This document shows, piece after piece, positions 16,188-35,700 of a stretch of DNA of 64,000 nucleotides; positions within the stretch are counted from its first letter, which is position 1; every line of letters begins with the position of its first letter. The DNA is taken from positions 4,224-68,223 of the forward strand of contig JBEKZC010000004.1 of assembly GCA_049510295.1 (NCBI GenBank), read 5' to 3'. A program made the translations under genes and the position numbers. The notes beneath the pieces were generated by a model that saw only the letters and a list, made by a program, of their open reading frames with translations, made no database searches and was not told the origin of the DNA. This DNA is from Verrucomicrobiota bacterium (lineage in GTDB: Bacteria; Verrucomicrobiota; Verrucomicrobiia; Limisphaerales; UBA11358).

Positions 16188-16197
16188 CCCCGCAATT

Positions 16198-17086: not shown

Positions 17087-17324
17087 GGTGGTTGGAACGT
17101 GGCTACGGACAAGCGTATGGGAATGTGTCTGGCCTTGCGCCAGTTTGCGTATGGGCCGCTTTTCTCCACGTCTTTACTTGAATACGTGTTCCGGCCCCAA
17201 TGCCAAACCGAACCCGGAATTAGAACGGCCATCCTTGGGGGTGGCACCCCGCGCAAATCATCGTAATCAGAAGGCCACCACGGATGGCGGGGGTGGGCAC
17301 CAGCGCGGGAGCGGGGGGAAGTGG

Positions 17325-18737
17325 CTACCGTGTCAGCAGTTCACCCTTCACCACCACCGGCATCTTAAACTTTTCCACGGATTGACGCTGGATGAACGCC
17401 TTGACCTTTTCCAGTTTGGTCGGAAGTTCTGGATCATCCGGTTCCGCGAACACGCCCACGCCGTCATATTCATAGGCCAGCGTCAGCCCTAATCCGTCGG
17501 CGTAACTGTAAAGTGCCGGGTCCAGCATCAGCACCCCCTCGTAGTATTCTGAAATACAGCAGCCGGTGCGTTCACGCGGCATCGTAGCCCAGACCTTCAC
17601 CATTTCAGGAAAGAACCTCCTGAACCATCGTTCAAGTGCCCGCATGTCGGTTCTGTTTTTTTGGCCATCAGTCCGGCGTGTGTATTCTTTCCCCCCGTTC
17701 AACCATGTATTCAGGCACTCCTTCATGTCGCTCAGGTCAATGCTCAGACCAGCCTCTTTCATAATTGTGGCCCGCGGGTCAATCGTCGGATGCGTGAAAA
17801 TGTAGGTCCATCGGCCATGCTCAACCAGAAGAGCCAGCAAGTTTACTTCTCGCTTCAATTTGGCAGCCACTTCAAGGTCTTTTGGAGTCGGATGCGTGTC
17901 GGTGGTTCTGCCGTCGTATTCGGCGATGGACGACAGGAAGTAATCGCGTAGAAATTCGCCAAGGAACGTCGGGTGACATGCTCGGATGTCCAAAATCGCC
18001 ACGTATGGTTTGCCCTTGAACCGCGCCAATGGTTTGTATTCCCTCGGCAGGTTGACAAAGTTGTTGTAAATCCTGCCATCTTTGATTTCCAAATCACTGA
18101 ATTTTTTCTCCACGATGGCGGATACATGGTGAACCGCTGAACGGTATGTGCCGGGAGCCTCAACCTTGTCCTGTTCCAATCGGCTCCACACCGCATCCCT
18201 GTCAAACGTGACAGCCGTTGTGAAGGCGTTGACGATTTGCTTCTCCGGCTCCGCGTAAACCCTGTCCCTCACCTTTCGCTTGGAAATGGCCACCTGATTG
18301 CGCCGCCAAGTGGACGGGTCTTTCAATAGTTTGTAGAGCCACTGGTGGTTTCCTTCCAGCACCAGTTTCCGGCCAAGGGGGGTTATGGTGTATTTGCGGC
18401 ACTCGCCGGGAATGCCGTAATTGGGTGGTGGCCGGTAGGTGGTAAAATCTATCAGTTCAAGTTTGCGGAGCGCATTACGAAACTTTGTGTATGATTGAGA
18501 ATATGGCCGGAAACGGTCTGCGATGTCCTTGTAATCCCACGTCACCGGCTTGTCATCGTTCCGCTCCATGCCGGCATCAATGGCGGTCAGCCAATACTGC
18601 GCCGTGTTTATGGCTTTCGGCTCCGCTGCGAAAACGGGATGGGTGATGAGCAGGTCAAAGAAGTTCCGGCTAACCTTCACCCTGTTCCAAACCCTGTAGG
18701 GCGATGCGGCTGCTGTTTTGGTCGCGTCTGTGCTCAT
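17325..18737 (-). CDS. Hypothetical 470-aa protein of the integrative element (possible replication/mobilisation role, unproven)
   Basis: Long ORF with good coding look and no motif I can name. The position between resolvase and LSR, flanked by 31-bp direct repeats, suggests an element-maintenance function. Confidence 0.4.
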   Translation of the reverse strand: MSTDATKTAAASPYRVWNRVKVSRNFFDLLITHPVFAAEPKAINTAQYWLTAIDAGMERNDDKPVTWDYKDIADRFRPYSQSYTKFRNALRKLELIDFTTYRPPPNYGIPGECRKYTITPLGRKLVLEGNHQWLYKLLKDPSTWRRNQVAISKRKVRDRVYAEPEKQIVNAFTTAVTFDRDAVWSRLEQDKVEAPGTYRSAVHHVSAIVEKKFSDLEIKDGRIYNNFVNLPREYKPLARFKGKPYVAILDIRACHPTFLGEFLRDYFLSSIAEYDGRTTDTHPTPKDLEVAAKLKREVNLLALLVEHGRWTYIFTHPTIDPRATIMKEAGLSIDLSDMKECLNTWLNGGKEYTRRTDGQKNRTDMRALERWFRRFFPEMVKVWATMPRERTGCCISEYYEGVLMLDPALYSYADGLGLTLAYEYDGVGVFAEPDDPELPTKLEKVKAFIQRQSVEKFKMPVVVKGELLTR

Positions 18738-18966
18738 TCATGCTGTGCGTATAAAATTCCTCCCGGCGGGTAACGTTAAGACGCGACTCTTTTGTTCCAC
18801 AGCATTGACTGAAACCTGTTACCGCGTGCCGGGAGGGAAAATGTTTTTGTTCTGCTGTGTCATTCGCGCCATTGCCAATAAATAGGCCGTTCCACTGGCA
18901 CCAGTCAACTTTTTGCTAAAAACCACAATACCGCTTATCCTTTATTACAATATACCCTTCCCTCTC

Positions 18967-18997
18967 CCTCCATTATGCCACCGTAAAGGTAAACATC
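18967..18997 (+). repeat. 31-bp direct repeat, copy 2
   Basis: Identical to 17056..17086. Confidence 0.8.
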
Positions 18998-19065
18998 CCG
19001 GTGGAACATCCGGCTTCGGGTCGGTCAGGATTGACGCTGGGCTTGGTTTTCATACATTGTGCCGC

Positions 19066-19407
19066 ATGAGCGATAACGTCACGATGGACAATTTCTTGGA
19101 GCCGCTAACCCCGGAGCAAAAAGCGCGGCAGAATGCAATGGCGGAAATCAAAGAAGAGATGGGCAAACTAAAAACGACTCTGCGGAATGAAGTGCGGGTG
19201 CTGAAGAAGAAAAGAGGGGATGAGCTTATTCCGAGCAAACAAGCCATTTTGAACGAGCAGATTGCGAAAAAGCAGAAGGACTTTGATGATGTTGGCTGCC
19301 TGCTATACAGCACGACAACAACCGCCGCTAAAGAGCGTCAGGACTACTTCAAGCGGCTTATCAAATGGGATGAAATCATGCGGAAACACGGCGTGCCGGG
19401 ATATTAG
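19066..19407 (+). CDS. Hypothetical small protein (113 aa)
   Basis: Internal ATG at 19066 of ORF 18913..19407 (MSDNVTMDNFLEPLTPEQKARQ..). Charged and helical. Confidence 0.4.
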   Translation: MSDNVTMDNFLEPLTPEQKARQNAMAEIKEEMGKLKTTLRNEVRVLKKKRGDELIPSKQAILNEQIAKKQKDFDDVGCLLYSTTTTAAKERQDYFKRLIKWDEIMRKHGVPGY

Positions 19408-19435
19408 TCAGACCACAAACTGCTGGCGCAGTAAG

Positions 19436-19467
19436 AACCCCCGGCGTCCATCCCACCGGGGGTTTTG
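19436..19467. terminator. Bidirectional rho-independent terminator-like hairpin
   Basis: cccccgg (19438-19444) pairs with ccggggg (19456-19462) and is followed by tttt. It lies between convergent genes. Confidence 0.55.
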
Positions 19468-19481
19468 TTCGGGTAAGGGGA

Positions 19482-19940
19482 TTAAGCTGCCTTCAAGGAA
19501 AACTTCCCGTCGTTGACGCTGAATACCGCTTTCGCGCCGATGGACTTTTTCTTGAGCGTGTTCCGCACCTTCCAAGGCGTGAACACGTCACCCACGGTGG
19601 CGACGATTTCATCGGCGGTCATGGGCGAGCCGTGTGCCGTGATGACTTCCGCAATCTTGGTTTCCGCCTTGGGCTTCATCGGTTCCGGTTTCCAGTTTCC
19701 ATCGAGACTCCTTATTTCCGTCTCCATGGCGGCGAGTTCATTGCGAAGTTCTGCGTAACGGATTTTCAGTGGTTCGGCCAAACCGACCCGTTGCTGTTGC
19801 AGTTCCGCGATCTTGGTGTTGATGTCGGCCAAAGCCGATTGTGCGTTTTTGGTTCCAGCACCAGTTTTCTTGATGTCGTTTTTCATATTCGTATTTTGGT
19901 TTTTTGATGCCGGGTCATCCGGCAACTGGATCGCTGACAC
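19482..19940 (-). CDS. Hypothetical coiled-coil protein
   Basis: 152-aa ORF; the start could be the internal Met near 19886. Central heptad-like region (IAELQQQRVGLAEPLKIRYAELRNELAAMETEIRSL). Confidence 0.4.
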   Translation of the reverse strand: MSAIQLPDDPASKNQNTNMKNDIKKTGAGTKNAQSALADINTKIAELQQQRVGLAEPLKIRYAELRNELAAMETEIRSLDGNWKPEPMKPKAETKIAEVITAHGSPMTADEIVATVGDVFTPWKVRNTLKKKSIGAKAVFSVNDGKFSLKAA

Positions 19941-20007
19941 GGGGGCGCAAAACTGGCAAGCGACGGGATAGATTTTTTGCGCCGTGATGGCGTGAGGCTG
20001 AACCGAC

Positions 20008-21747
20008 TCAAATTCCCTTCGTCTTCCCCTTGTGATAATCCGGCATGTAAATCCCTGAAAATTGTTTGCCGAGCTTCCCTTTGAATTTCACTGGCACCGC
20101 CTTCATGGAAGGAGGCCCGCCATACTTTGGGTGAGACATGACGACGCGATGATTCGGGTCGTTCTTGAAATAGACATGATACATTCGTTCCCGGCGCTGG
20201 ACTTCTGACGTAAGCGACCACCCGGTTTTGGTCAATTCCCGCCTTTCCTTCCAACCAATTGAACCCGGTGGCGGCGGTTTGATTATGTCGTATGGCCAGA
20301 CCAAAATCTTTTCAATACACCCGCGAATTGCTTCCCGAAGGGCGAGCCGCATTTCGTTTGCCTTTGGGCCGGTGGTTTTTTGGGCCGTGGCAATCAAAGT
20401 CTTCAAGTCTTCTAATTTCTGTATCGGTTTGGATTCCTCGGCCTCTTTTGCGATTAGTTCTCCCAGAGATTTTTCCTCGGCGGTTTTTTCTGTCGTGATT
20501 TTTTCCATCATGCTGACGAGCATTGGAAGCGGTTTTTTGGCCAAAGCGACTGCTTCACCGAGATTGTTGAGCTTCATTTCCCTTTCTGCGATAGAGGCTC
20601 TTAACTGCTCAATGGCCTCAGCGGTTTGACTTCCGTTTCCCGACGGCTGCATCACGGCCTTCAAGTCCAACTCCTTTACGAATGTGAGGAAAGAGGTTTC
20701 AAATTCGTGGTATGGATAGGACACGTAACGACACTTCAATCCCCGGCGCGCACCGTCACACACTAACTCGTGGTAACGCGGGTCTTTTGATACGGACACC
20801 ATCGTTCCGCCGCAGAATCCGCACTTTGCAATATGAGAGAACAAATTGTGTAACATATTTCCGCGCCTGCCAGAACCCGCAACACGTCTTTGTTTTTGAC
20901 GATACTGGACGGTGCTGAACAACTCGTCGGATATAATTCTTGGGTAGTAGCCTTTGATTGGTTCTCCCTCCGGTTCGCGTTTGTTTCTGGTGACGTATTT
21001 ACAAGGTTGGAATTCTCCCAGCACTGCCCGGTTGGTCAAAATACGCGCTACGACGCTGGCGTGCCATGAGTTTACCCTGCCAATTCCCGGTTCGCCATCT
21101 GCGTTCAAAAGCTTGGCGATTGAGCCGTTCCCCATGCCGCTCTTGCTCAATTCAAAAATGTGCCGCACCGTTTTTACGCGTTCTCGGATTTCTTCAAATT
21201 TCCCCTTGTCACGATTCAGCCGCAGCCATGACGGGCAAACGGCTGTTAGCGGTTCAGCAGCGGCATTCTTCCGCTTGTTGTTCCACGCTGCTCGTATCCG
21301 TTTCCCCTTTTGGACTGACTCGTCGTAAGCCCGATGGAAATACAGGATGGAGAGCATCAAATCTGCCGGGTTATTGAGGCTGTCTTTCGTGAACCGTTTT
21401 CCGTCGGTCAAAGTTACAATGTCAATACCCTTGCGGAGAATGCGCTTAAACAATTCCGTCGCATCGTCAATCTGTCCGCGACTGAGCCGGTCTAAATTTT
21501 CTACAATAAGGCAGCTCCCCTTTTGGACTTTCCCCTCATCTATGGCCCGCAAAAATGCTCCAAGCCTGCCTCTGTGGATGTTGTCACCCGTGTATGCTGA
21601 CACTCCCAAGTCGCGGAAGCTCAAACTTTCATCAAGCGCAAGACCGTTTTTCGAGCAGTATTCCCGTGTGGACTCCAATTGACGCCGGAGAGAATCACCC
21701 TGAATTTGTTCTGGACGGGAAAACCGGATGTAACTATACGCTTTCAT
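20008..21747 (-). CDS. Large serine recombinase (integrase of insertion 1)
   Basis: ATG at 21747 (or 21768): [23 protein letters not shown].. (resolvase domain), ..[12 protein letters not shown].., a recombinase domain, a zinc ribbon ([18 protein letters not shown]) and a coiled coil. The track ORF extends to 22599 only as antisense read-through of comM. Confidence 0.85.
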
Positions 21748-21788
21748 GTGACGAATAGGGTATTGCATGAAATAGGTTATTTCAACCC

Positions 21789-22757: not shown

Positions 22758-23102
22758 GCACTTTGAGGGGGTCAGGTGCATGAATTTGCGATTGCAACTT
22801 CAATTGCCAGAGGTATTTGCATATCATCGGAAGGGAATACCCGCCAGATGGTTCAATGGCCGCCTCGGAAAGCGTTTTGCTTGATCATTATGGTGCGGTT
22901 AGCACAATTATCGGCCGAGTGACAAGCTTTGCTTTTCGTTTATGTAAATATCTACTTGACAAACAAGCGCCGGCGTGCAAACTAAGACTCATCATTCTAT
23001 GAATGAATTGGCTGATAACAAATGCTGGGTATAAGCTGTGAGCACGCTCCAGACTGGCATGCAAAAGATTGGGTTTCGAATTGATGTCGAAATAACACAC
23101 AT

Positions 23103-24407
23103 ATGAACGCTTCTGGCAAATCGCGTTTTGGTAGGAAGCTGCAAAAAGCACGGGAACGAATCGGCTGGTCTCAAAAAGTGCTTGCAGACAAAGTCGGTGT
23201 ATCACGCGTGACATTGGCGAGTTGGGAGGCCGGCAACTCTGCCCCCGATGGCGCGATGGCCTTGAAGTTGGCCAAGCAGCTGGACTCCGATGCCATCGAA
23301 TTCTTCCTTTTGGCGACATACCAGAAGGCAGCCACTACGGATTCGCTGTCAGCGGAGCTTGAGACGTTCGTTTTTGAACTCCTTGAAGAAAAGGGAATGT
23401 TGGCAGCACGTCACGGGGGATTACATAAACCTACCAGTCATTTGAGTCTGGTGGATTCGCTTCGGGCGTACTCTCCTATGGTGATTATCACGGGTGACAA
23501 GAGAGAGGATCCCCCAAAGAACGCGGGCGATCTTTTTGCCTTCTCAAACAGTTCGCTCGACGAGCGTTGGATTTGTTCACTTCGTTTACCCCCGGACACC
23601 GAAAAGATTTCAGACAAAGTTGTAATGACCGCTCCGGAAAAGTGGTTACGAGAAAACCTAGGCAATAAGCACATACTGTGCGTCGGATCGGGTGCGGCAA
23701 ACCTTTACGCGAGAGAATTCAACGATTCATTTCTCTTCCGCTTTAACATTACTCGCGCGAGCAAAGCCAGCTGGGAGGAGAATCGTGACAAAATCAAGAA
23801 GATGCCCCAATACGAACTCGTTGACTACGCTCAAAAGCAGAGGGATAGGCTGAAATACGAAATGCACCGGTTTAAGCCACCAGGCTTTGTTGACTACAAC
23901 TACGAATATCTTACGCTGGGAGTTGATCTACCTCAAGACATGGACTTCGGAGTCATCAGCTTAGGGCGAAATCCTTGGGCTGCAAAGAGTGATCCGAAAT
24001 TTGCGATTCTCGCTGCAGGGGTTCACCTCCCAGGAACAGCACATGCGGTAAAGTTTCTGTCTGACCCGACGAATTTTGAAGAACATCCATTCGGTGGCGT
24101 TATAGATGTTGAAGTCCCGGCTGTGGAGCACCGCGGAGCGGATATCCCCTGGTACGAGAAAATTGGCAAGTGTAAAGCATATTGGCATAGTGCGGGGAGC
24201 AAGCCATTGACGTACACGCCAGAGAAACTTCGTAAGAGCCTGCAGAATTGGCTCAAGCAACTTGAAAAGGGGCAGCTCGAAGTGGATGTAGCCCTCAATA
24301 AGGCGGAGATTGAACGGCACATCGACACGATTGATATGTTGGCGTATGCGAAGGTTCAACAACAAAAACTCAGTGCGGCAAATGGAGTTGAAGAGGAAAG
24401 TGGCTAG
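23103..24407 (+). CDS. XRE-type HTH fused to an uncharacterised ~350-aa C-terminal domain
   Basis: 434 aa. N-terminus RKLQKARERIGWSQKVLADKVGVSRVTLASWEAGNSAPD; I cannot assign the rest (..ILCVGSGAANLYAREFN.., ..FAILAAGVHLPGTAHAVKFL..) to a family. Confidence 0.6.
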   Translation: MNASGKSRFGRKLQKARERIGWSQKVLADKVGVSRVTLASWEAGNSAPDGAMALKLAKQLDSDAIEFFLLATYQKAATTDSLSAELETFVFELLEEKGMLAARHGGLHKPTSHLSLVDSLRAYSPMVIITGDKREDPPKNAGDLFAFSNSSLDERWICSLRLPPDTEKISDKVVMTAPEKWLRENLGNKHILCVGSGAANLYAREFNDSFLFRFNITRASKASWEENRDKIKKMPQYELVDYAQKQRDRLKYEMHRFKPPGFVDYNYEYLTLGVDLPQDMDFGVISLGRNPWAAKSDPKFAILAAGVHLPGTAHAVKFLSDPTNFEEHPFGGVIDVEVPAVEHRGADIPWYEKIGKCKAYWHSAGSKPLTYTPEKLRKSLQNWLKQLEKGQLEVDVALNKAEIERHIDTIDMLAYAKVQQQKLSAANGVEEESG

Positions 24408-24562
24408 AAGCGCACTTATGCTAGTTATCGAGTGGCGGCGCTTGCCTTTCGGCTTCTTCAAGCACGCGCATAAAACTGGCTTTAGGGCATTATCAGGCTT
24501 TACTACCTTGATAATGAACTATTATTCGAGATATGACCCAGTTGAACAAAGGATAGACTACA

Positions 24563-27500
24563 ATGGCTACTAAAATGACCTGCCCAGTTAACAAGGAAAC
24601 GGTGCGTGCAGCTAAAGAGGCAGTCCGGTTAGTCGGGTTCGGACTTGGAAATCTGATGTATCGCATCTACAGGGGCGAAATCCACAAATCAGACTGGAAC
24701 GCCACGGATCGAGAAAACGCCAAGGGTACGGACGTGTTTCTTCTTGGCGGTTCCATCTGCACGAACGGCTACACGCAGCAACTGTTGCCACTTATTGCGC
24801 AAAGGCAGCTTTTGTCAATCGACCCAGACTTTGCAGGCAAAGTGCGCATTTTCACGCCGTATATGGAGTCTGGTCATGCAGGAGCTTTTGGCGCCTACTT
24901 TATGGCACTCACTGAGCACGTGAGGAAGGAATTGCGATCTAAGGCGGAAGATATTTACGCTAGGAACAAGGTACCTATTCTGCCGCTCATCGATATTGGT
25001 GGCACCAAGGTCAACTTGGTGCTTGCGTACTTGGATCAGGAGGGGGAGCTCACCTTAGACATTCTTGAAAGTCACAGATATGTGACCCCAATTAGTGAGC
25101 CAGAGGTTTTTTATCCTCGCTTAGCATCACTTCTGGCCGCACCACTGGCTGCAATCCGGTCGAATGACCTTTTTGAACTCATTCCCGTGCTTGCGGTTGG
25201 GCAACCCGGCCGCTTCGAAGATCCGAAAGGCGAGATAGGCATTGGCACTGCCAAGGATCTTGGGCCGAAGTTTCCTGGTTGTGTTCCATCTAAGCTTCTT
25301 GCCAGGTCGTTGCAACCAGACTTTGGCGATATCGATGTTTATTGCGCGAATGATGGGCGCTGCCAGTTTCTCGGGATTGGCGTTCTAGGCCGTAAAAGCG
25401 AACTTCAGAGATGGAAGGATCTCCACGATCACAAAGTCGCTTACCTAGGCCTAGGAACTGGTTTGGGAGCCGGATTTGGAAAGATCGACAAAGATGGTTA
25501 CGTAAAGCCGTTCTCGATGCACAACGCATTTGATATTCTTGCCGACAAAAAACTTGAGGAACTTCCGGCCTCCGAGCACGTGGCCAAGCCAGTTCTCTCA
25601 ATGCCCTATCAGTACGGCGACTTGCTATCCGGGAAGTTTTTCAGAAAATTCATGCGCGACGTTGATCTCACGCGATTTGACAATGGCCAACCGACGTTGT
25701 TTCTGGCCTGTTCCAGTGCGGGGTGTTTAATTGGACAGCGGACACAGGAGCGAGCGCTACTCGCGGCAGACGTGAGAATCTCCCCGCTTAATGCAGTCCT
25801 CCTGAACGAAATACTCGCCGAGGAAGTCGTAACTGCCAAAACCGAAGAGATCGTCGAGCGGTCACGACAAGAACTGGAGAGGGAGCTTTATCGTACACTG
25901 GATATCATGGCCGATGAACTTGGCAAGACGCTCCGAGACAACGTTCGCGGATGCGCTTACGCGGACGTAATCGAACAAGTCGCCTGCGTGAAGCGCCGCG
26001 GTCGTCGCGTACAATTTATTGGTATTGGCAAATCCCACTCGATCGGCAGGGATCTGGCTTACATTTACAACAATCTTGGCATTGACAGCGCGTCTTGTGA
26101 ACTGACAGGTGCGAATTCAGAGAATCTGACGAATCTTCACGAGGATGATCTCGTCTTTCTGATTTCAAATAGTGGCCATGCTGCCGAATTGCTCCAGCTC
26201 GTTCCCTATATTCACCGCAAGCGTTGCTTGACTGTTGCACTTACGGGGGATAAGACGTCACCACTCGCTGATTGGTGCTCGTATTTCGTCAACACTCACG
26301 TGAATGTGAATCCGCATCCTATACCGGAAGCGCCGACTACGAGCACGATGTCTGCACTCGCTGCCGGCACAGCGATTGGAATGGTGGTCTCATATCTGTT
26401 TGATTACGATGCTAACGACTTCTTTCTCGACCACCCCAACCTCCAGTTTAACGTGGAATTTCCCGTGTCTGGAGTGCGAGCCGACGCCGCGTTCGACAGG
26501 CTCACGAAGGTGGAAGACATCTTTCAGCGGTTTGCCGCTTCGATTGGAGGTTTGCGCGACGATCATGAGTTTGTGCCAACGATGATCTCGTTGACACAAC
26601 GAATCCTCGCGTCGCACTACAACGGGCGGACGATATTCTTTACTGGCGCAGGTGCATCGTTACGGGTTGCCGAGAAGATTGCTGCGACGCTCACCAGCAT
26701 CGGTATCGATGCTTCCGCTGTTAATTCAGCGCAATTACCGCATGGTGATTTTGCCCACATTCGACATGGTGATTTGCTGGTCATCATCTCGTTCAGCGGT
26801 GAGACGCGGCAACTTCTCCACATTCATGAGGTCGCCCAGGACAAAAAAGTTGACTGCGTAGTAATCACAGCCAAGAGGAATTCGTCGCTCGCGCGTAAGT
26901 CTCCGCCGGGCCTCTGCTTGATAGCCGGAGAGGGGGCCGATGATACCGACCTCTGTGCAATCCCTGATCAAAAATTGCTCTCGTCTTTCATCAACTTAAC
27001 GGTTGGTGATGCTCTGGCCGTGATTCTTGGCCAAGTCTTGGGGCGAACTACTCAGGATTTCATGTATGAAGGCCATCGGGGAGGTGTGGCCGCGCGCGCG
27101 CAAGCGCGTTTGGACGACAAACTGCTGAGCGAACTTGGAGAAGATCTTGCCCACCAGATTGCATCCAATCCCGAAAAGCTTGCGGAAATCAACAATCCGC
27201 CAGCCGGCAAAGTTGCTATTCCAGTGACCGGGGAGCACCTGATTTCATATGACCGGCGCAGTTCTGGGCCGTCTGTTGGTTCAGAGGTCATGATTTTCGG
27301 TATGGGTGGAATTGGCCTTGCTTATCTAGCGCCCATCTTCAGCAAACTTGGAAAGAAGATTTTGTTCGTCGAAAAGGACCGTGAACGAATTCGCACAATG
27401 CAACAAGTTGGATTTCGATATGATGTGCGTTGTGTTGGCGACTGTGAAGAATGTATGGCCAACATTGCAATAGGTCGTGTGTCGGTCATTTCGAGCGAGG

Positions 27501-28486
27501 AACGAGATTCAATAACCGCGAACGCGTTGCGGGTTGATACGATTTTTACCGCTGTCGGTGTTGACAACGTCAAGTCGCTGCTCGAAACCATCGCCGATAT
27601 TATCATAGTCCGATATCAGTTCCGGGTAGAGGTTCCACTAAACATTGTGTTCAGTGAGAATTTTCCTGTTGTAGAAAATCCGCTCGCGCACAACCGTCAT
27701 CGCTTGCGTGAGATGCTGGCTAGTCCCGAGTTGAAGGTGTATTTTGACCGGTTCGTCGGGCTAGTCCCCGCGATCGACGAAGCAGTGGTGCCGGAGGTGA
27801 AAACGGAGTCACTTAAAAATCCTATTTTCATCGAGGCGAATTGCGCCGTGCTGTTTGTCGATCGTCGTCAATGGTGCTATCGCTCCAAGCGTGATCACAA
27901 AGAGGAGCCAAACTTTGGGAACCAGTTTGCTTTTACAGAGTCGTTCTTGCCTCTTCACATGAGGAAGCTTTGGGTCCACAATATGGCTCATGCCATCATT
28001 GGCTACTTGGGGTATTTTTCCGGTCATCAATTTGTTTACGATGCCGTGATGGATCAAAAAATCAAAGAACTTACGATTCGAGCGATGCGTGCGGTCGGGC
28101 ATGAACTCTACCGTCGCTGGAGTTATCGAGAAACCAAGCAGCCAACACTAGCGAAATACATCAGTTGGCGATGGGAGCGCTATTGCAATAAAGCATTAAA
28201 AGACCCGGTGACACGGCTGTGCCGAGATCCCGAGCGAAAGCTAAAACGAGACGATCGTCTCGTTGGTGCTGCGAACTACTTACGCCGATACGCGGGACGA
28301 ACGAAGGAAACGGATCAGGCCATTGTCGATATCCTTACCGGAGTAGTAGCTGCAATTCATTATGCAGAGAAAAACATCGGTACGAACCCAGAAGTGTTGT
28401 ATGCGCAAGTGACCCGCGATCTTGTGAATATTGACTCGGAATTAATGAATCGTGCCAAGGCAGCATTCCGCATGTTCTGCCATTGA
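24563..28486 (+). CDS. 1307-aa fusion protein: ASKHA sugar-kinase (ROK/glucokinase-like), two SIS domains and a mannitol-dehydrogenase-like domain
   Basis: Kinase motifs: LIDIGGTKVNLVL, VLAVGQPGRF, CANDGRCQFLG, YLGLGTGLGAGFG. SIS 1: VQFIGIGKSHSIGRDLAYIYNNLGI..VFLISNSGHAAE. SIS 2: IFFTGAGASLRVAEKIAATLTSIGI..VIISFSGETRQL. C-terminus: Rossmann MIFGMGGIGLAYLAPIF plus ..LWVHNMAHAIIGYLGY.. as in the MtlD family. Confidence 0.7.
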   Translation: MATKMTCPVNKETVRAAKEAVRLVGFGLGNLMYRIYRGEIHKSDWNATDRENAKGTDVFLLGGSICTNGYTQQLLPLIAQRQLLSIDPDFAGKVRIFTPYMESGHAGAFGAYFMALTEHVRKELRSKAEDIYARNKVPILPLIDIGGTKVNLVLAYLDQEGELTLDILESHRYVTPISEPEVFYPRLASLLAAPLAAIRSNDLFELIPVLAVGQPGRFEDPKGEIGIGTAKDLGPKFPGCVPSKLLARSLQPDFGDIDVYCANDGRCQFLGIGVLGRKSELQRWKDLHDHKVAYLGLGTGLGAGFGKIDKDGYVKPFSMHNAFDILADKKLEELPASEHVAKPVLSMPYQYGDLLSGKFFRKFMRDVDLTRFDNGQPTLFLACSSAGCLIGQRTQERALLAADVRISPLNAVLLNEILAEEVVTAKTEEIVERSRQELERELYRTLDIMADELGKTLRDNVRGCAYADVIEQVACVKRRGRRVQFIGIGKSHSIGRDLAYIYNNLGIDSASCELTGANSENLTNLHEDDLVFLISNSGHAAELLQLVPYIHRKRCLTVALTGDKTSPLADWCSYFVNTHVNVNPHPIPEAPTTSTMSALAAGTAIGMVVSYLFDYDANDFFLDHPNLQFNVEFPVSGVRADAAFDRLTKVEDIFQRFAASIGGLRDDHEFVPTMISLTQRILASHYNGRTIFFTGAGASLRVAEKIAATLTSIGIDASAVNSAQLPHGDFAHIRHGDLLVIISFSGETRQLLHIHEVAQDKKVDCVVITAKRNSSLARKSPPGLCLIAGEGADDTDLCAIPDQKLLSSFINLTVGDALAVILGQVLGRTTQDFMYEGHRGGVAARAQARLDDKLLSELGEDLAHQIASNPEKLAEINNPPAGKVAIPVTGEHLISYDRRSSGPSVGSEVMIFGMGGIGLAYLAPIFSKLGKKILFVEKDRERIRTMQQVGFRYDVRCVGDCEECMANIAIGRVSVISSEERDSITANALRVDTIFTAVGVDNVKSLLETIADIIIVRYQFRVEVPLNIVFSENFPVVENPLAHNRHRLREMLASPELKVYFDRFVGLVPAIDEAVVPEVKTESLKNPIFIEANCAVLFVDRRQWCYRSKRDHKEEPNFGNQFAFTESFLPLHMRKLWVHNMAHAIIGYLGYFSGHQFVYDAVMDQKIKELTIRAMRAVGHELYRRWSYRETKQPTLAKYISWRWERYCNKALKDPVTRLCRDPERKLKRDDRLVGAANYLRRYAGRTKETDQAIVDILTGVVAAIHYAEKNIGTNPEVLYAQVTRDLVNIDSELMNRAKAAFRMFCH

Positions 28487-28523
28487 TGCTCTTTGCACCG
28501 AAGGCAGGTGATTGCTTTCACAA

Positions 28524-28553
28524 AAAGGCAACGAATAGGGGTTCGTTGCCTTT
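28524..28553. terminator. Conserved hairpin of HTH1 unit 1 (bidirectional terminator-like)
   Basis: aaaggcaacgaa/tagggg/ttcgttgccttt. A T-run follows on the minus-strand reading, and the hairpin lies 38 nt after the stop of the 1307-aa gene. Confidence 0.55.
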
Positions 28554-28555
28554 GG

Positions 28556-28852
28556 CTATTTTGGACGTTGTTTCGTCAATGTCGCGAACGGGTCATAACC
28601 CATATACGCGATAATTCGAGCGTGATAGGGAACTGTTGGAAACAGCCGGTCACATTCCCAAAGACTCAGAGACCTTGGGCTAACCCCAAGCATTCGAGCC
28701 GCTTCCGATTGCCGGATTCCCGCGCCAAACCGTTTCTTCTTGAGATGTTGGCCGAGGGTCGTAGGCTCTTTTGCGATTGGAAAACTGCGAGTCCAAACCG
28801 GTGCTACGTCTTTGCGCGGCACGCTCACAAGCCTGTCGCAAAAAGGCAACAT
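28556..28852 (-). CDS. Small XRE-like HTH protein, HTH1 copy 1
   Basis: 98 aa: MLPFCDRLVSVPRKDVAPVWTRSFPIAKEPTTLGQHLKKKRFGAGIRQSEAARMLGVSPRSLSLWECDRLFP.. Confidence 0.65.
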   Translation of the reverse strand: MLPFCDRLVSVPRKDVAPVWTRSFPIAKEPTTLGQHLKKKRFGAGIRQSEAARMLGVSPRSLSLWECDRLFPTVPYHARIIAYMGYDPFATLTKQRPK

Positions 28853-28859
28853 CGCGCAC

Positions 28860-28972
28860 CGACTTTATTGGGGTCAGTTGCATGAACTTGTGATTGCATC
28901 CCGCTCGTGTTGAATTACTTGTAAACCCCTCAAAAAAGGCAACGGTCGGGGTTTTCAGAAATTCCGCATTTC
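28860..28972. repeat. Junction right-arm repeat (module B start)
   Basis: cgactttattggggtcagttgcatgaacttgtgattgcat..ttgaattacttg..aaaaaggcaacggtcgggg..tttcagaaattccgcatttc is homologous to 37965..38080. Its first 39 nt are also homologous to 22758..22796. Confidence 0.7.
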
Positions 28973-29537
28973 TGATGATTAGACCCAGTCCTCAAACTGA
29001 CTCTCTGGTGATTCGAAAAGGTAAATCCAATCAGATTCGTTTTCTGTCGAGGCAGTGGCGCACGGCGGGGACAAGCGTTTGCGGTGATATGAACGAGGAA
29101 TAGCCTGGTGAGGAGTCGGCTCTGTCTTACGAAGTCGAGAAATGAAATAGGCTAAGAATGGAATCCCGGCTGGTTTCAATTAAACATCCCTTGCATTAAC
29201 CCTTGAATATGTTATGAAATCACCGCCTCAAAGTGACCGGTTTTGATTCGACCCCGGCTGGCTGGTTTTGAAGTGACCGGTGACAAAAATTGGTTAGCCG
29301 AGGAATCGAGAGGGGAATGTCCCCGAACACCCGCCTCACACTCCCTGAAACAGTGCCGACTGAAACTAAATTAAGTTAACCTATTGCAGCCTCGACCCCA
29401 AAGATTTCTGGTGCCAAACATATTTGACAACACCGGTGCCAATACAAATGAATTCAACGTAGTAAATTGACTGTGTGATGCAACACCGCGCGTCGATAGT
29501 GCCAGAATAAACATGAACGCTTCTTATGTCTTCACAT

Positions 29538-31202
29538 TTACATAACAATTCCTTTTTCTTTAAGATCATAAAGGCAAGTAAGAACGTCAGGAAATGCTTC
29601 CTTGGGCTGAATTTGATAACGTCTGGCAAGGAGGGCTGCGATGGAGGCAGGCGTGCGGCTGCCGTTGCAGAGCCCAATAATCTCCCGCGCTGTTCGATTA
29701 ATAACGACACTTTCTCGCTGATTAACTGCCACGTATTTTTCGCCGACCTTTCGTAGCAAGAGGCCACTTGCCTGTTGTGGTCGCAACTTCTCCGCATCTG
29801 CCCAAGGTCCGGAGGCGTCTAGATATTGACACACGAGATTCATAAAACCTTTACGTTCCGCTTCTGATAATACAGCAATTGCCATCTCAATGGTGCATTG
29901 AATATAACGACATTGTTCTGGCACTGGTACTGAAACGCAGCCACTATCCATGTACGCATCGTGGTAACACATGCCACCACAATATTGGCGTGCCCAACAT
30001 GCGGAACAACTCGCATTTTCAGCGCCCATTATTATCTTATCTACAGGCGATGCATCATATCCTGTGAAAACTGTCCCCATATGAAATTTTGGTAGATCAA
30101 AGAAGCGATGACAGAGACAGTACTCACCCGTAGCAGAAACTCCTAAATATGAACATCCAGCGCCGCACACCTGTCTCGAACGCCGTCCATAAAGTGCACG
30201 GCGAAGCCAATTTGCACTCTGAATGTCCCCGGAGTAGCCGGCGGCAACAACATCATCACAGAATGCAGTAAAGAGCGCCTCATAGGAATCCCGCAAGGCG
30301 GGAAGATCGTTTTCTTGGAGATTAAACTCTGGTTTCCCCGCCACAAACGCGGGGACGAGGGCAACTCTGCGAACACCCAGCCCTTGTAAGTAACGATAAA
30401 TCCCCGGCAAATTAAGATTGAGACGGCTAAAAGTGGCACGGATCATTACACGGTCAGTATCAGTTCCCATGATTCGCAACAGCATACTAAGCTTTCTCGA
30501 TGCAACGTCAAATATGCCCTGACCATTCGGGAATAATCTCATGCGATTAGTTGTTTCAGCGTTTCCATCAAGGCTGAACAGTACTGCAATGTGATGTTCA
30601 TGGATGAATTTAGCAATCTCCTCTATCAGCATTGTTCCATTGGTTGTGAGTCCGAATGCAATATGGCATTTCTGCTCCTTAGCCTTTTGTTCGCCATAGA
30701 GAACAAGTTCCCTCATGACTGAATAATTCAGTAGCGGTTCTCCACCGAAGAAAGATACATTGTGCCGAGATGATGGCTCATCAATAAGGCGATCAATTGC
30801 GGCTTTGCCGATTTCGAGGGACATGTCGACAGAAGACGATCCCTCGTGCTGAGCACTGAAGTAACAATATTTGCAGCATAGATTGCATCGCCTGGTAAGT
30901 TCAAGGGAAAGATAATTAACTGGGTTTCGGCAGCTCCCCGCCCTTAAGCTCAATATTTTTGAATTAACCAATCGGCTTGCTGTGTGTTCTAACGGCTCTG
31001 ATGTAATACCCGCGGCCGACACTCCTCGGGTTTCATACAAACTCTTCCATGCTCCGGACGTAAGCAACAGTTCTTCGTCTGGAGTAAGACAAAGAAAAGT
31101 CCTCGTCTTACTGTTAACGGCAAAAGATTTCTGCCCTCTGCGATATATATGAATATCTTGCATCCCAGATAGTAACCCGTCACCCATCCGGCACCCATGC
31201 AA
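29538..31202 (-). CDS. Radical SAM / SPASM maturase with a C-terminal PqqD/RRE-like domain
   Basis: 554 aa with CxxxCxxC (RRCNLCCKYCYF), SPASM Cys clusters (..CSACWARQYCGGMCYHD..) and a C-terminal ..VVINRTAREIIGLCNGSRTPASIAALLARRYQI.. PqqD-like segment. Confidence 0.8.
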   Translation of the reverse strand: MHGCRMGDGLLSGMQDIHIYRRGQKSFAVNSKTRTFLCLTPDEELLLTSGAWKSLYETRGVSAAGITSEPLEHTASRLVNSKILSLRAGSCRNPVNYLSLELTRRCNLCCKYCYFSAQHEGSSSVDMSLEIGKAAIDRLIDEPSSRHNVSFFGGEPLLNYSVMRELVLYGEQKAKEQKCHIAFGLTTNGTMLIEEIAKFIHEHHIAVLFSLDGNAETTNRMRLFPNGQGIFDVASRKLSMLLRIMGTDTDRVMIRATFSRLNLNLPGIYRYLQGLGVRRVALVPAFVAGKPEFNLQENDLPALRDSYEALFTAFCDDVVAAGYSGDIQSANWLRRALYGRRSRQVCGAGCSYLGVSATGEYCLCHRFFDLPKFHMGTVFTGYDASPVDKIIMGAENASCSACWARQYCGGMCYHDAYMDSGCVSVPVPEQCRYIQCTIEMAIAVLSEAERKGFMNLVCQYLDASGPWADAEKLRPQQASGLLLRKVGEKYVAVNQRESVVINRTAREIIGLCNGSRTPASIAALLARRYQIQPKEAFPDVLTCLYDLKEKGIVM

Positions 31203-31240
31203 TAAAATTGAAAAGCTATGGGTTAATTACAATTCATTCA

Positions 31241-31471
31241 TCAGGCAGATTCCCCGTCGCATGGGCGACATTCGAAATGGTCGCCGCAACCGGCACATTC
31301 CAACACTTGCCCGCAGTTTGTGCACGGTCTCTCGCTAGAGGGGCAAATGGTGCATTCACATTCCACATTCACATTAGGAGGTGTGGTTTGTTTGATGCCT
31401 TTCGCTATGCCACCAACATCTGGTTTTTCATAGGTCGGCTTTGATTTATTGCATTTCTTTGAGTTTCTCAT
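31241..31471 (-). CDS. Cys-rich precursor-like peptide (76 aa)
   Basis: Strong SD (ggaggga) 5 nt before the ATG at 31471. MRNSKKCNKSKPTYEKPDVGGIAKGIKQTTPPNVNVECECTICPSSERPCTNCGQVLECAGCGDHFECRPCDGESA. It ends 38 nt upstream of the rSAM start. Confidence 0.65.
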   Translation of the reverse strand: MRNSKKCNKSKPTYEKPDVGGIAKGIKQTTPPNVNVECECTICPSSERPCTNCGQVLECAGCGDHFECRPCDGESA

Positions 31472-31545
31472 CGTCTCCCTCCAAGAGTATTGCCCGGTCC
31501 GCCGCCGGAAATTTGGCTTCGATGTTTTGAATTAATTAAGCGGAT

Positions 31546-31581
31546 ATTTCCCACATATGACCCGACATTTCCCATATGACC
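31546..31581. promoter_or_regulatory. Tandem operator-like repeat upstream of the precursor gene
   Basis: atttcccacatatgacc and atttcccatatgacc lie 4 nt apart, each centred on a catatg palindrome, about 75-110 nt upstream of the precursor ATG (minus strand). Confidence 0.3.
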
Positions 31582-31798
31582 TACGCTCGCCACTGTCGCG
31601 AAGCATTTGGTTTCATTGGCCGTCATTTTATCCTCGCTGCCTGTGTCCGCAAGCTTATTTTCCTATCTCAAGGCCGGATTGTTACCTCCGGGATCGTCGT
31701 TCTTCCTTGCAAACGGGCTCCATCGCGAATTTTGACCAATCATCGGCACAATCCTTCCCTCAGCCCGCACTCCTTCCCCCTATTTCGTTCCGTGGGCA

Positions 31799-32191
31799 TC
31801 AGCCCGGTACCGGTGTGGGCAACCGCAGGTGCCCAATCCGCTCCAGAATCGCTCGGAATAACTCACGCGGAATCGCCACTTCCGCCATCTGGAAGATCAC
31901 CTGCCGGGCATGGCGCACCACCTTCGCGCCGATCTTGATCAGTTTCTCCCGCAACGTCGTCAGCGGCAGCTTGGTGTCCTGAAACACCGTTCCCGCCAGC
32001 ACCGAAGTCTGGTGCCGGCAATCCTGACAAAGCCACAAGCCGCGTTTCATCGGCCAAGTGCGCTGGCTTGCGCAGCGCGGACAACGCAAGCCCTCCGGCC
32101 AGCGAAACGCTTGAATATAGGCCAAACAATCGGTCTCATCGTGAAAACGCTGTTCCAGTTCCATCCATGTTCGCGGGTAGTCTTCGTTCAT
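31799..32191 (-). pseudogene. Chimeric transposase remnant (IS1595-type zinc-ribbon N-terminus fused to an unrelated transposase C-terminal tail)
   Basis: N-terminus ..DCLAYIQAFRWPEGLRCPRCASQRTWPMKRGLWLCQDCRHQTSVLAGTVFQDTKLPL.. is the IS1595 N-terminal domain. The tail ..KLIKIGAKVVRHARQVIFQMAEVAIPRELFRAILERI.. resembles the extreme C-terminus of IS1380/IS4-type DDE transposases. There is no catalytic domain. Confidence 0.6.
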
Positions 32192-32323
32192 ATCCGAAAA
32201 CTCTACCCGTTGTGCCTGGTTGAGTCATGTGCATACCCCTATGAAATGATTAAATATTGAAAGGTTGGGCCTCTTTTTTCGTATCAGACGAATGGAGAAC
32301 GCAGGCGAAGAATCATTGGGGTT

Positions 32324-32539
32324 ATGGCGCGGGCGGCCCAGCTCAATAATCTTCAACAGTGGCTGAAAATAGCTGAGAAATCAACCTACAGCGCCCGTGT
32401 CTTGTCGAAAAAACTGGAAGTCTCCCCACGGCAATTGCGGCGTTATACGCACGCCCGTTTTGGACGCAGACAGCACGAAAAATTCAGCCCTTCTCCCGTG
32501 AGTTGCGCGAGAATGGCTGACTACGAGCGGCGGAAATAG
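32324..32539 (+). pseudogene. AraC-family HTH fragment
   Basis: 71 aa: ..YSARVLSKKLEVSPRQLRRYTHARFG.. is a single AraC-type HTH repeat with no ligand domain. Confidence 0.4.
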
Positions 32540-32561
32540 CCGCCAACGGCGTGTTCATTCA

Positions 32562-32771
32562 CGCGAGAACCACTCCCAAATTATTTAACACGACATCGAT
32601 CGGATTCACCAAAGTGATGCCGGATTGGTTATCCGTGGCGCATACCAACCCCACAGGCTGTAATGTTGCAGCGTCAACGACGAGTGACCCCGAATCGCCT
32701 TTCTGTGCGAACGGCTGACCATTCACACCTTCAATGAGCCCGGTGTTTGGGCCCGGTGTTGACCAAGCAGG
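32562..32771 (-). other. 70-codon stop-to-stop frame encoding a GDSGS serine-protease-like C-terminus; overlaps the S8 stop
   Basis: I translated this by hand: PAWSTPGPNTGLIEGVNGQPFAQKGDSGSLVVDAATLQPVGLVCATDNQSGITLVNPIDVVLNNLGVVLA*. It has no ATG and is offset by one nt from the S8 frame. Confidence 0.3.
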
Positions 32772-35700
32772 TCATACCTCCAATTGTAGTGTTGGAGACC
32801 GTCATCTGTGTGGCGTCCACCTTGAAGACTCGCGCCTGTTTGGTCTGCGAAATGAACTTCAAGTTGACCATTACATCTTCGCCGGGATTGATCGGAATAC
32901 CTTTGATGTAAGTGCCGGCGGCGTTGAGCACCTGAAAAACAATGCGGCTCCTCGATATTTCCATCGGGTAAGCGTCCTCAAGCAACAGCCTGTTGAGGCG
33001 CAAGAGGTCGTCTCCTTCCGGGTTCTGCGTGAGGAGTAGTTGTGTTTCCGGACGCAAAACCACACCCGCAAAACGCTGAGCATCATAGATTGATTGGCCC
33101 CGAATGATCCTGTTAAAGTCCTTTACGAGTGCTGTTTGAGAACTGGGGTCGTGGTCTGTGCCCTGGTATTTCGCCAGAGTTTTCAGCGTCGCCGCAGACA
33201 ACCGGCCCTTGAGGTAGAGGGAAACAGCGTCTGCCGGCTGCTTTAATCTGCTGGCAAGCGATGGCAGATTGACGAGGTCACCCACTGAAAAAGTCGAGGA
33301 ACCAATAATGCTCGTCTGCCTGTCGGTGACAAGCTTGAAGCCCGTGCCCTGCGCGCCAGCTCGCAACCAGCGCTGGTGGAGGGTTGGGCCGAGGTCAAAG
33401 AATATTTGGCCTTTGCCCAGGAACGTATCCGATTTCGTTGTGGGGAGCGCTCTCAGCCGCAGGTTATAGACCACAGCGCTGGTCCCCGAGCCGACAGGGT
33501 TGCGCATGATGAAGCTGTAGATAATTGGTGTGTTGGGTGGTGCTGTCACGATCTCCATGTTGCGCCAGGCGATGTTGTTGTTTTCACCCGTATTAAAGTT
33601 GACGTCGCTGGTCAATTGCGCGTGGAGCGGGTCCTGGCCGGAAACCCATTGGGCCATGATGCAAATGTGGCCCGTGCTGGGGGGATGCCAGAGAATGTTC
33701 ACAATTTGATCCGAATTCGCCGGGACCGTCGTCGGAATATCAGCAAACCAGTTCCACTGGTTAGGCCAGGACAAACTGCTGGAGCCGTAAGCCCAATACA
33801 ACTTCACCACTCCCGTGGCCGTCACGGACGTCGGGACCCTGGTGGTTCCGTGGTTCCACAGGTGGACATTGATGTAGTTGTCCACTCCGTACTCCGGTTG
33901 CTCGTAAGTTTGTGTACTGTCAGGAGCCGGATCCAGGCGGTTCCAAATGTCCGGGCTTTCCCACATGTTGGCAGTATTGTTGACATAGTTAGGATTCGGT
34001 TCGGTCCCATTATCAGCGGCATCGTCGCGAATGTAAACGTCGGCTACCGGCGTGGTTGCCTGTATGGCATTGTAAATCACCAGAGCAAAATCCTGGTTGA
34101 CAGGATTTGTATTGCCTGGGATGGCGCCGGCGGCAAGGTTGTTTGCGGTAACCGTGACTGTGATGGGATTGGTGACACCCGCTGGCAGAAAAACATTCTC
34201 GACATTGTTCTTCGTGTCCGCGGACCCGCCGGGGGTGGAATATTGGCCGCTAAACACATTGCCCAGATATGTGCCACCAGCCGTAACTGTGAGGTTAAGG
34301 TCATTGACATAGGCGTTGCCCGTGGTATTGCCGGGAGCATCGCTCCACACCAAGGTAACACGCAAGGGCTTGGTGGTATCGTAAACCGACAACGTGCCAG
34401 GATAAGTGTAGCTTGACCCCGAGCTATTGAAGATTTGGGTCTGGTCCACCAGCAACCGCGGGAGGCCATCGAAGGCCAAGCCCAAATCCACGTCACCCCA
34501 ACCAAAGTTGTCGCTCGGCAGGGTGTCGGTTCCATAGTTGCCTGATGCCATATAGCGGGCACTGTTGATCACCAAGGCCTTCAACATCGCTGGGCTGGGA
34601 GTTGTCGGATTCCCTTCATTTTGGTAGCTCAATAAATTGTGATAATTCTCGTAAATTAGAGAAGCCGATCCGGCAACAGCCGGCGTGGCTTGGCTGGTGC
34701 CGGAACACATGGCGTACCACGTCTGGCCAGGGGGGTAATATTGTAAGCAAACGCTGCCTCCATTATAACCCGGATCTTGGGACGCAAGCCCCTGTATTTT
34801 CGTGCCGGGTGCCATAATGTCCGGCTTATACCGTCCGTCTGCGGTCGGACCACGCTCTGAAAAATAGGCGACGTTGTCCGCGTTCGACGCTGTATCGGGC
34901 CAGCAATTCCCATTACCATAAACCGGTGGAACAACGCGCACGTTTTCAGTCGCTCCCACAGTCAACACGTTTTTTGCCGAGCCGGGACTAGCAACCGTGG
35001 AGGGAGGGGCTGGCGTCATGGTATTATTACCATCGTTTCCAGCCGCGAAAACATCCAGCATCTCGTGCAAGGCGGCGGGGCTGGAATTGGAAGCGTTGCG
35101 CGTGAGACTGTCATAGGCCTGGTCCTCCGCATTGTACACTCCGTAGGTTGATGCTCCCCAACTGTCGGAAGTCAGGCCGGCCCCGTGGCCATAGCTGTAG
35201 CCAACCACGCCTGCGTCACTCTGGCTGGTGTAATCGCCCGTGTTGCCGAATATCTTCGTCCCGGCCACCCGGCCAAGGGGTGAAATACCCATGCCGATAT
35301 TATAGCCATTGGTATCAATCGAATCGGGCGAAAGAGTCCCGGTATCGTAAGCCGCGACAATGCCGGCATTAAGGTTCCCGTGTCCCTGCAGGCCGTCCCC
35401 CAAGGGATCACTCGTGAGGCTGCCGATGTACGCGATGCGGGATGCATTGTTGGTAATGCCAAAATAATAAAAGTCCGGATGGCCTGGAGAGGCCGCTTGG
35501 CCGTTATCCACCCCGTCATCCACAACATCCACGATGGGATAGTTGGTCGGGTTCAGGGGAAAACCCTTTGAGACAAGCCACAGCCGGTAGGGGGTATAAG
35601 TGGCATTGGTTGTCGGTTGGGGAACGATGTTTACACCGGAGGTCACCACGTTGCCGGCGACGATCTGGCCCTGCACTTCGTCCTGAAGGGTCGGAGAAAT

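Follow-up and report, generated by a model that had tools for sequence, protein, structure and literature searches.

Regulators that join a helix-turn-helix (HTH) to a sensor domain and are encoded directly upstream of variable accessory cargo are known from the WYL-domain proteins BrxR and CapW and from XRE regulators of the CapH type. Among enzymes of sugar metabolism, kinases of the ROK/hexokinase type (NanK, 6Q26; glucokinase, 2QM1; human glucokinase), isomerases of the KpsF/GutQ/KdsD type (2XHZ, 3ETN, 5UQI) and the dehydrogenase MtlD (3H2Z), the last with fused variants such as an Acinetobacter dehydrogenase/phosphatase (NCBIfam NF046057), have been described as well, and double-SIS enzymes (the isomerase half of GlmS, PGI/PMI) are built on a tandem SIS pair with one composite site. 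On the genomic side, SCCmec-type arrays arise where large-serine-recombinase elements accumulate side by side at a single chromosomal site, some of them without a recombinase of their own (PMC11470126). Here we consider a 64,000-nucleotide (nt) stretch from a Verrucomicrobiota bacterium (assembly GCA_049510295.1, contig JBEKZC010000004.1, positions 4,224 to 68,223 of the forward strand; hereafter the window, numbered from its first letter), in which a mobile cassette inserted in comM carries two large genes, one for an HTH protein, which we call the partner, and one for a fusion protein that strings together a predicted kinase, two SIS domains and a polyol-phosphate dehydrogenase. The architecture of the fusion is real, is built from known enzyme families and is previously undescribed: PADLOC (PADLOC-DB 2.0) gave 0 matches for the large protein and targeted literature searches turned up no relevant description, in line with an initial annotation, made by a model from the sequence alone, that knew of no system of this kind.

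The cassette in question, cassette A (22762-28859, ~6.1 kb), is an integrase-less mobile module and the first of three in tandem within comM. Its cargo is limited to the partner gene (23103-24407, + strand; 434 amino acids (aa)) and the fusion gene (24563-28486, + strand; 1307 aa), plus a small HTH open reading frame (ORF) in its right end. These two co-oriented ORFs have exactly the coordinates given in the initial annotation, every motif it named (DIGGTK, NDGRCQFLG, LGLGTGLGAGFG, DVFLLGGSICTNGY and HAGAFGAYFMAL) is present in the translations, and its proposals that the two genes fill a whole mobile module and that this module lies in comM are borne out by a 37-nt left and a ~340-nt right end shared with the neighbouring cassettes.

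The C-terminal ~400 aa of the fusion (aa ~905-1307; 27275-28483, + strand) correspond to a long-chain polyol-phosphate dehydrogenase of the MtlD type. Both Mannitol_dh (36.5 bits) and Mannitol_dh_C (68.5 bits) score over their Pfam cut-offs, as the earlier call of a mannitol-1-phosphate-dehydrogenase-like Rossmann and helical domain had anticipated, and the segment aligns end to end with MtlD 3H2Z (382 aa; residues 4-313) at E 1e-27. As in MtlD and its fused variants, the GxGxxG Rossmann motif (G913/G915/G918) and the K1135-x4-N1140-x2-H1143 motif are kept, and both are nearly invariant in homologues. Because this full-length match contrasts with an E of only 7e-4 for the longer free-mannitol dehydrogenase 1LJ8, the comparison suggests that the substrate is phosphorylated. 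The best NCBIfam MtlD model reaches 121 bits against a cut-off of 359, which is far under the equivalog level at which the same substrate would be expected; also unlike MtlD and NF046057, the dehydrogenase stands behind a kinase and two SIS domains and is accompanied by no phosphatase.

The two phosphosugar-binding SIS domains proposed earlier were found by Pfam (SIS in two stretches, 125.3 bits against a cut-off of 25), by the NCBIfam kpsF model (two stretches, 140.3 bits against a cut-off of 203.7, E 9e-41) and by alignment to solved structures alike. SIS domain 1 (aa ~478-640; 25994-26482, + strand) matches the phosphosugar isomerase 5UQI at E 1e-14, and SIS domain 2 (aa ~685-860; 26615-27142, + strand) aligns with the arabinose-5-phosphate isomerases 3ETN and 2XHZ. 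In these matches to the kpsF model and to solved structures the pair resembles KpsF/GutQ/KdsD, from which it differs in that the kpsF score stays below cut-off, a Pfam search found no C-terminal CBS pair, and the catalytic residues are divided between the domains. SIS1 retains the invariant lysine of GIGKS (K490) and has SEN where isomerases have HGD, and SIS2 retains the invariant H727/G728/D729 and has GAGAS, without the lysine. Neither domain holds both the GxGKS lysine and the HGD histidine, and the two losses are complementary. Since each half keeps one of the two catalytic residues, SIS1 and SIS2 probably form an asymmetric pseudo-dimer with a single composite active site, by the same logic as in the tandem pairs of double-SIS enzymes. 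The NCBIfam equivalog models for KdsD (130 bits, cut-off 505) and GutQ (125 bits, cut-off 481) do not reach their cut-offs.

The N-terminal segment (aa 1 to ~400; 24563-25762, + strand) is an ASKHA kinase of the ROK/hexokinase-like kind, judging from Foldseek matches and motifs, and would be circularly permuted, judging from predicted strand order. Here the initial annotation finds faint support in sequence and clear support in fold. The Pfam thresholds for ROK and Glucokinase were not reached (Glucokinase 11.8-15.8 bits against a cut-off of 22.1, E 0.12; no match to ROK), and a profile of the N-terminal 475 aa gave a weak alignment to NanK, a ROK kinase, that covers aa 143-325 (E 0.05). Its ASKHA call held, however, at the level of fold and conserved motifs: an AF2 (AlphaFold2) model of aa 1-475 (pLDDT 87.8, pTM 0.85) together with Foldseek gave a two-lobed ASKHA fold, the top matches being hexokinase, glucokinase and ROK structures (E ~1e-7, probability 1.0, TM ~0.3), and the low TM is what one would expect of a sequential aligner if the chain order is permuted. 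In the fusion-family alignment (14 homologues, 38-64% identity), the phosphate-1 motif DIGGTK (aa 144-149; D144/G146/G147/T148/K149), the catalytic ND (N263/D264, followed by G265) and the phosphate-2 motif GLGTGLGAG (aa 296-304; pattern G296-x-G-T-G-L-G-x-G-x-G306) are all invariant or nearly so. The adenosine motif VFLLGG (aa 58-63) lies N-terminal of phosphate-1; its G62/G63 are nearly invariant in the 14 homologues and invariant in the 13 sequences of a separate N-terminal alignment.

This position of the adenosine motif agrees with the arrangement of strands in the model, which has exactly ten. Five belong to the N-lobe (aa 137-263), starting with DIGGTK; the C-lobe has three at aa 291-316, starting with GLGTG, plus two at aa 58-97; and beyond aa 316 there are helices only. 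Thus aa 58-133, opening with VFLLGG, are predicted to provide the two missing C-lobe strands with their helices. The initial annotation had suspected that the first ~125 aa belong to a permuted or a duplicated kinase, and the domain is best read as a circular permutation rather than a duplication, because the strand order and the total of ten in the model amount to one ASKHA fold; the duplicated kinase was rejected, with no strands after aa 316 to build a second copy. With the ROK/hexokinase-type kinases the fusion shares this fold and all four motifs (phosphate-1, ND, phosphate-2 and adenosine). Unlike them, it carries the last strand-helix-strand-helix of its predicted C-lobe at the N-terminus, and unlike ROK kinases, besides scoring under the Pfam thresholds, it is without their zinc-binding motif, CxCGxxGCxE being found neither in aa 300-400 of the translation nor in the family consensus.

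The order of domains from N- to C-terminus (kinase, isomerase, dehydrogenase) is also the order of the reactions that we propose. Let us suppose that a single polypeptide lines up its three enzymes in this way. The permuted ROK/hexokinase-type kinase would phosphorylate a free sugar (an aldose) with ATP, the KpsF/GutQ-type tandem SIS would convert the aldose phosphate to a ketose phosphate, and the MtlD-type NAD(H) dehydrogenase would reduce this to a polyol phosphate. The likely overall course, from sugar to sugar phosphate, keto-sugar phosphate and polyol phosphate, would use ATP and NADH, with mannitol-1-phosphate-like chemistry as the closest model; the substrate class and the direction of flux are likely ones, read from the enzyme families to which the domains belong. 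If the enzymology is as proposed, the fusion would be a natural single-chain, three-step pathway from a sugar to a polyol phosphate, with a permuted ASKHA kinase and an asymmetric tandem-SIS isomerase within it, and would merit attention in studies of enzyme evolution and substrate channelling.

Members of the fusion family are extremely rare. Among 5.8 billion proteins, a single-sequence search and a profile search recovered an identical set of 14 clusters; the prospect, raised in the initial annotation, that homologues are widespread core metabolic genes was not borne out, the family being neither widespread nor core. Scans of viral contigs contained relatives of neither the fusion nor the partner family. 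We infer that the fusion is a very rare accessory gene that moves horizontally, here as cargo of cassette A.

We read ten distinct genomic contexts of the fusion, including that of the window, where the HTH protein is its neighbour, and found no neighbour conserved across them; what stands beside the fusion differs by locus and is often of a mobile or defence-like kind. In L007 a 581-aa protein without assignment lies upstream and a DeoR-C protein downstream; L010 has an RHS toxin, four transposase genes of insertion sequence (IS) elements, a GAF kinase and an Apyc1-like (metallo-beta-lactamase) response regulator; L011 has two AbiE pairs, a helicase and two TIR proteins; L012 has a transposase and a TIR protein with weak ThsB-like matches; L013 has an unassigned 311-aa protein related to one in L012; L014 has a TIR-DUF4062 protein and an nSTAND-TPR protein, with a DeoR-C protein directly upstream; L015 has Uma2; and L018 and L019 have nothing telling. 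TIR genes are thus found at a distance of one to three genes from the fusion in three of the ten contexts (L011, L012 and L014; ThsB-like matches weak, E 2e-4 to 7e-3). TIR genes are rare enough that three in ten is far above chance, a judgement of general knowledge rather than of a computed base rate. The TIR neighbours have unrelated architectures with only the TIR core in common and look like independent systems in defence islands, not partners. A Thoeris-like arrangement, with a ThsB-like TIR gene conserved beside the effector, was not found, TIR genes being present in three contexts only and none lying in cassette A.

An all-against-all BLAST of the neighbours in eight of the contexts gave one weak pair only, that of L012 and L013: proteins of 311-380 aa encoded directly upstream of the fusion (L012 6737-7879, L013 6153-7088; 29% identity), both in AT-rich lineages and the sole neighbour common to two contexts. 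PDB sequence searches with the upstream proteins of L012 and L007 gave nothing usable. The small downstream proteins of L007, L011 and L012 were considered as a conserved partner and rejected, being mutually unrelated. We also note that one of the 14 clusters, P0012 (L013 7244-11258), is a split copy of the fusion; its N-terminus is encoded by the preceding 208-aa ORF, which shares 69% identity with P0011 aa 1-209, and the split reflects either a frameshift or an assembly error.

The partner begins with the canonical XRE HTH named in the initial annotation (HTH_3 at aa 13-64, 50.3 bits against a cut-off of 23, E 2.5e-13). Pfam assigned none of the 370 aa that follow, and the C-terminal ~330 aa, which the initial annotation could not assign, resisted assignment here as well. 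This part, which we call domain X (aa ~105-434; 23415-24404, + strand) and which alignments and a predicted model suggest to be a putative ligand-sensing module, has no match in Pfam, NCBIfam, PADLOC, the PDB (by fold or by sequence profile) or BFVD. A BcsB fold was rejected (Foldseek E 0.02, TM 0.25), the other PDB and BFVD matches covering the HTH only, as did the weak PADLOC matches of the partner (aa 6-96; RmrA, capH and control-protein models). In the AF2 model of the partner (pLDDT 91.3) domain X is predicted to alternate strands and helices in a Rossmann-like manner. Its invariant residues are G131, D132, R134, D143, D171, G195, S196, N200, R204, F214, G306, T312, F325, G331, G332 and W361; 90% or more of the sequences also share E135, K172 and R213.

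A HMMER scan of 1.84 billion representatives, clustered at 50% identity, found 377 clusters of domain X, a family to which proteins P0049-P0051 and P0064-P0202 belong. In a sample of 90 family proteins, its companions were an XRE-type HTH in 39, Nuc_deoxyrib_tr in 6, a protein kinase in 4, a caspase in 4, SIR2 in 3, TIR or CAP12-type TIR in 2-3 and DUF4062 in 1. This swapping of effectors, together with the conserved charged residues (D132, R134, D143, D171 and R204; E135, K172 and R213), suggests a ligand-sensing module of conflict systems. Targeted literature searches found no description of domain X, which probably constitutes a separate, undescribed sensor domain; with its wide family fused to classic immune effectors, identifying the ligand would give access to a whole class of single-protein systems. 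In some 13 family proteins X stands at the N-terminus and is followed by a C-terminal part of ~300 aa without assignment; PDB sequence searches with two such X-first proteins, P0086 and P0120, gave nothing usable.

The partner thus resembles BrxR, CapW and CapH-type regulators in being an HTH and sensor-domain protein encoded directly upstream of variable accessory cargo. It differs from BrxR and CapW in that domain X is not WYL and is without a known fold match, and its regulatory role is putative. Beside the 14 HTH-X genes that a set of close X sequences found in metagenome-assembled genomes of Verrucomicrobiia, Planctomycetota, Chloroflexota and Gammaproteobacteria, most neighbours are housekeeping genes (GH53, MurJ, amidase, RibD_C), again unlike the case of defence-island regulators, and a few are conflict-like (CHAT-AAA-TPR, Schlafen, a Type ISP enzyme). 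The suggestion that partner and fusion form a conserved sensor/effector pair did not survive these comparisons, as the two co-occur in none of the nine other fusion contexts and in none of the 14 partner loci. We infer that the partner is a regulator recruited at this locus and no constant companion of the fusion.

How such local regulation might work can be considered from the spacer. Partner and fusion gene run in the same direction, separated by 155 bp in which no terminator was found. An operator-like palindrome, CATTATCA-N13-TGATAATG (24488-24516), a perfect inverted repeat of 8 bp, lies 46 nt upstream of the ATG of the fusion; by our estimate, ~0.1 palindromes of this kind would be expected by chance in the 171-nt spacer. 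The palindrome and the lack of a terminator give weak support for local regulation. The partner would probably bind this palindrome upstream of the enzyme gene, and would probably release the DNA once domain X has bound a small ligand, so that the enzyme is expressed only under certain conditions.

Taking these observations together, the reading that we put ahead of any other, though at somewhat less than even confidence, is that the fusion is a conditionally expressed accessory enzyme of niche or stress metabolism. In its favour are the domain identities with their conserved motifs, the match of domain order to reaction order, the small number of clusters, the spacer with its palindrome and no terminator, the mixed cargo of the wider cassette family, which includes glycoside hydrolases, efflux pumps and dehydrogenases, and the DeoR-C proteins, which sense sugar phosphates, beside the fusion in L007 and L014. 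A number of points weigh against it. The sequence names no substrate; the cassette carries no transporter or phosphatase; and kinase and isomerase activities for common hexoses are already in the cell, so that the metabolic benefit is not obvious. The link to the partner is drawn solely from adjacency, orientation and one weak palindrome. A partner-family hidden Markov model (HMM) matched none of the neighbours in the nine other fusion contexts, and the fusion HMM found no fusion-like, SIS or MtlD gene at the 14 partner-family loci. On the side of the enzyme, the case for permutation is made by the predicted strand count and order and by the positions of the motifs, and placing aa 40-133 behind aa 134-400 in rearranged constructs brought no extension of the ROK or Glucokinase matches into the C-lobe; the P0014 construct alone reached 25.1 bits with ROK (cut-off 22.9), over the N-lobe only. 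Finally, TIR genes within a few genes of the fusion in three of ten contexts, AbiE, RHS, Uma2 and IS elements among the contexts, and the fusion of domain X elsewhere to immune effectors would all sit more comfortably with conflict than with metabolism. A role in conflict or defence, which we consider possible on the whole but rather doubtful, would have HTH-X sense an infection-derived ligand and de-repress the fusion enzyme as a metabolic effector. The enzyme might then drain ATP, NADH and hexose phosphates to a dead-end polyol phosphate, causing growth arrest or abortive infection, or might remove a sugar precursor needed by the phage. Its appeal lies in the neighbours just listed (TIR genes in L011, L012 and L014, AbiE in L011, RHS, IS elements and the Apyc1-like protein in L010, Uma2 in L015), in the caspase, TIR, SIR2, Nuc_deoxyrib_tr and protein-kinase companions of domain X, in the rare and patchy occurrence of the fusion family, and in the mobile cassette family that carries the pair, where restriction or helicase-nuclease types account for 6 of the 20 large cargo proteins sampled. 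It is set back by the PADLOC models, which match neither the large protein nor domain X; by the contexts, where no neighbour is conserved among fusion homologues and the small downstream and TIR proteins are mutually unrelated; by the partner-family genes, which mostly lie beside housekeeping genes (GH53, MurJ, amidase); and by the viral contigs scanned, whose lack of either family leaves no counter-defence signal. Moreover, we know of no sugar-phosphate or polyol enzyme that serves as a defence effector. The stronger claim, that cassette A is a new immune module in which domain X switches on a trifunctional sugar enzyme and ATP, NADH and hexose phosphates are diverted to a polyol-phosphate sink, protecting the population, seems to us unlikely; were it true, a defence effector would for the first time be seen to act on central sugar-phosphate metabolism.

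The same observations may be accommodated, with about the same doubtful standing as a role in defence and without excluding the other readings, if the cassette simply captured two unrelated cargo genes together, a self-contained HTH-X unit and a stand-alone enzyme gene. Neither family neighbours the other outside this locus, the neighbours of both vary from locus to locus, and X-domain proteins with effector domains resemble single-protein systems; yet both genes point the same way across a spacer of 155 bp in which no terminator was found, the palindrome precedes the enzyme gene, and the arrangement is kept in 20 of 20 contigs with an identical enzyme, though these represent one lineage. Far less probable than any of these, in our estimation, is that the fusion makes an envelope precursor, a polyol or unusual sugar phosphate for a capsule, teichoic-acid-like or lipopolysaccharide (LPS) polymer that would alter the cell surface; candidates would be ribitol-, arabinitol- or mannitol-phosphate, or a Kdo-pathway-like product. 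Polyol phosphates are building blocks of such envelope polymers, and both SIS domains are closest to the KpsF/GutQ/KdsD isomerases of capsule and LPS synthesis, but no nucleotidyltransferase, glycosyl- or phosphotransferase, polymerase or exporter was found in the cassette or beside any homologue. On balance, conditional niche or stress metabolism has in our view a slight edge over defence.

The array in which cassette A lies interrupts comM, whose 5' part (21679 to ~22761) and 3' part (~42640 to 43113) are separated by cassettes A (22762-28859), B (28860-37964) and C (37965-42641). All three begin with the same 37-nt left end (starts at 22762, 28860 and 37965) and finish with the common ~340-nt right end (28513-28850, 37618-37955 and 42295-42632; 90% identity). 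Shared ends on both sides and one chromosomal target gene mark this as a tandem site-specific array like those of SCC elements: as in SCCmec-type arrays, three cassettes with common ends are stacked at a single position within a conserved gene, cassettes A-C have no recombinase of their own, a gene for a large serine recombinase is nearby, and defence genes are among the cargo. Unlike them, the target is comM, not rlmH, and the recombinase (20008 to ~21750, - strand, divergent from comM) lies outside the array, beyond the 5' part of comM.

In the right end of every cassette is the small XRE-HTH ORF (98 aa; 28556-28852, - strand, in cassette A), its protein kept in all three copies. A hairpin with a 13-bp stem (28524-28553), within the right end and between the convergent fusion and small HTH genes, is likely a bidirectional terminator. 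The small gene has at least 149 relatives in metagenome contigs, and in most of the longer ones it lies 6 bp from a comM 3' fragment, with adjoining cargo that varies by contig (L034-L113). We surveyed 20 large cargo proteins from such contigs by a Pfam scan. The six restriction or helicase-nuclease proteins are of Type I, IIG, III and SNF2 kinds; ten belong to other classes (GH95, GH94, an Ig/PKD protein, PIG-L deacetylase, AcrB, P-type ATPase, YcaO, ThiF, aldehyde dehydrogenase and a sensor kinase); and four have no confident Pfam match. Because this survey is mixed, the comM cassette family carries both defence and niche cargo, and the mixture does not settle the role of cassette A. Integrase-less comM cassettes are widespread in metagenome contigs and combine restriction systems with metabolic genes; they offer a tractable model for the stacking of accessory and defence genes at one chromosomal site. 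In three contigs (L066, L070 and L091) an intact comM is followed by the small HTH gene and then by an additional comM 3' fragment; this arrangement resembles either a minimal ('empty') version of the element or one that carries its own comM 3' copy.

The other two cassettes carry cargo of different kinds. In cassette B (29538-37098) there are a radical SAM protein with a PqqD domain (29538-31202, - strand), an IS1595-type fragment and a 1455-aa subtilase (32731-37098, - strand), which may constitute a peptide-modification set. The sole cargo of cassette C (38563-42102) is a hybrid sensor kinase with SBP_bac_3, PAS, GAF, HisKA, HATPase and receiver domains. An Rfam scan of 22-43.5 kb found no RNA families. 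Upstream of comM, a lower-GC region (11500-21750) holds, besides the large serine recombinase, a small resolvase (16198-17001), a PLD-like nuclease (12700-13221), several ORFs without Pfam matches and 50-nt direct repeats at 11560 and 13272. Directly 3' of the comM 3' part, at 43142-52918, lie an ECF (extracytoplasmic function) sigma factor and three large proteins (1245, 315 and 1003 aa) with CsgG-like segments.

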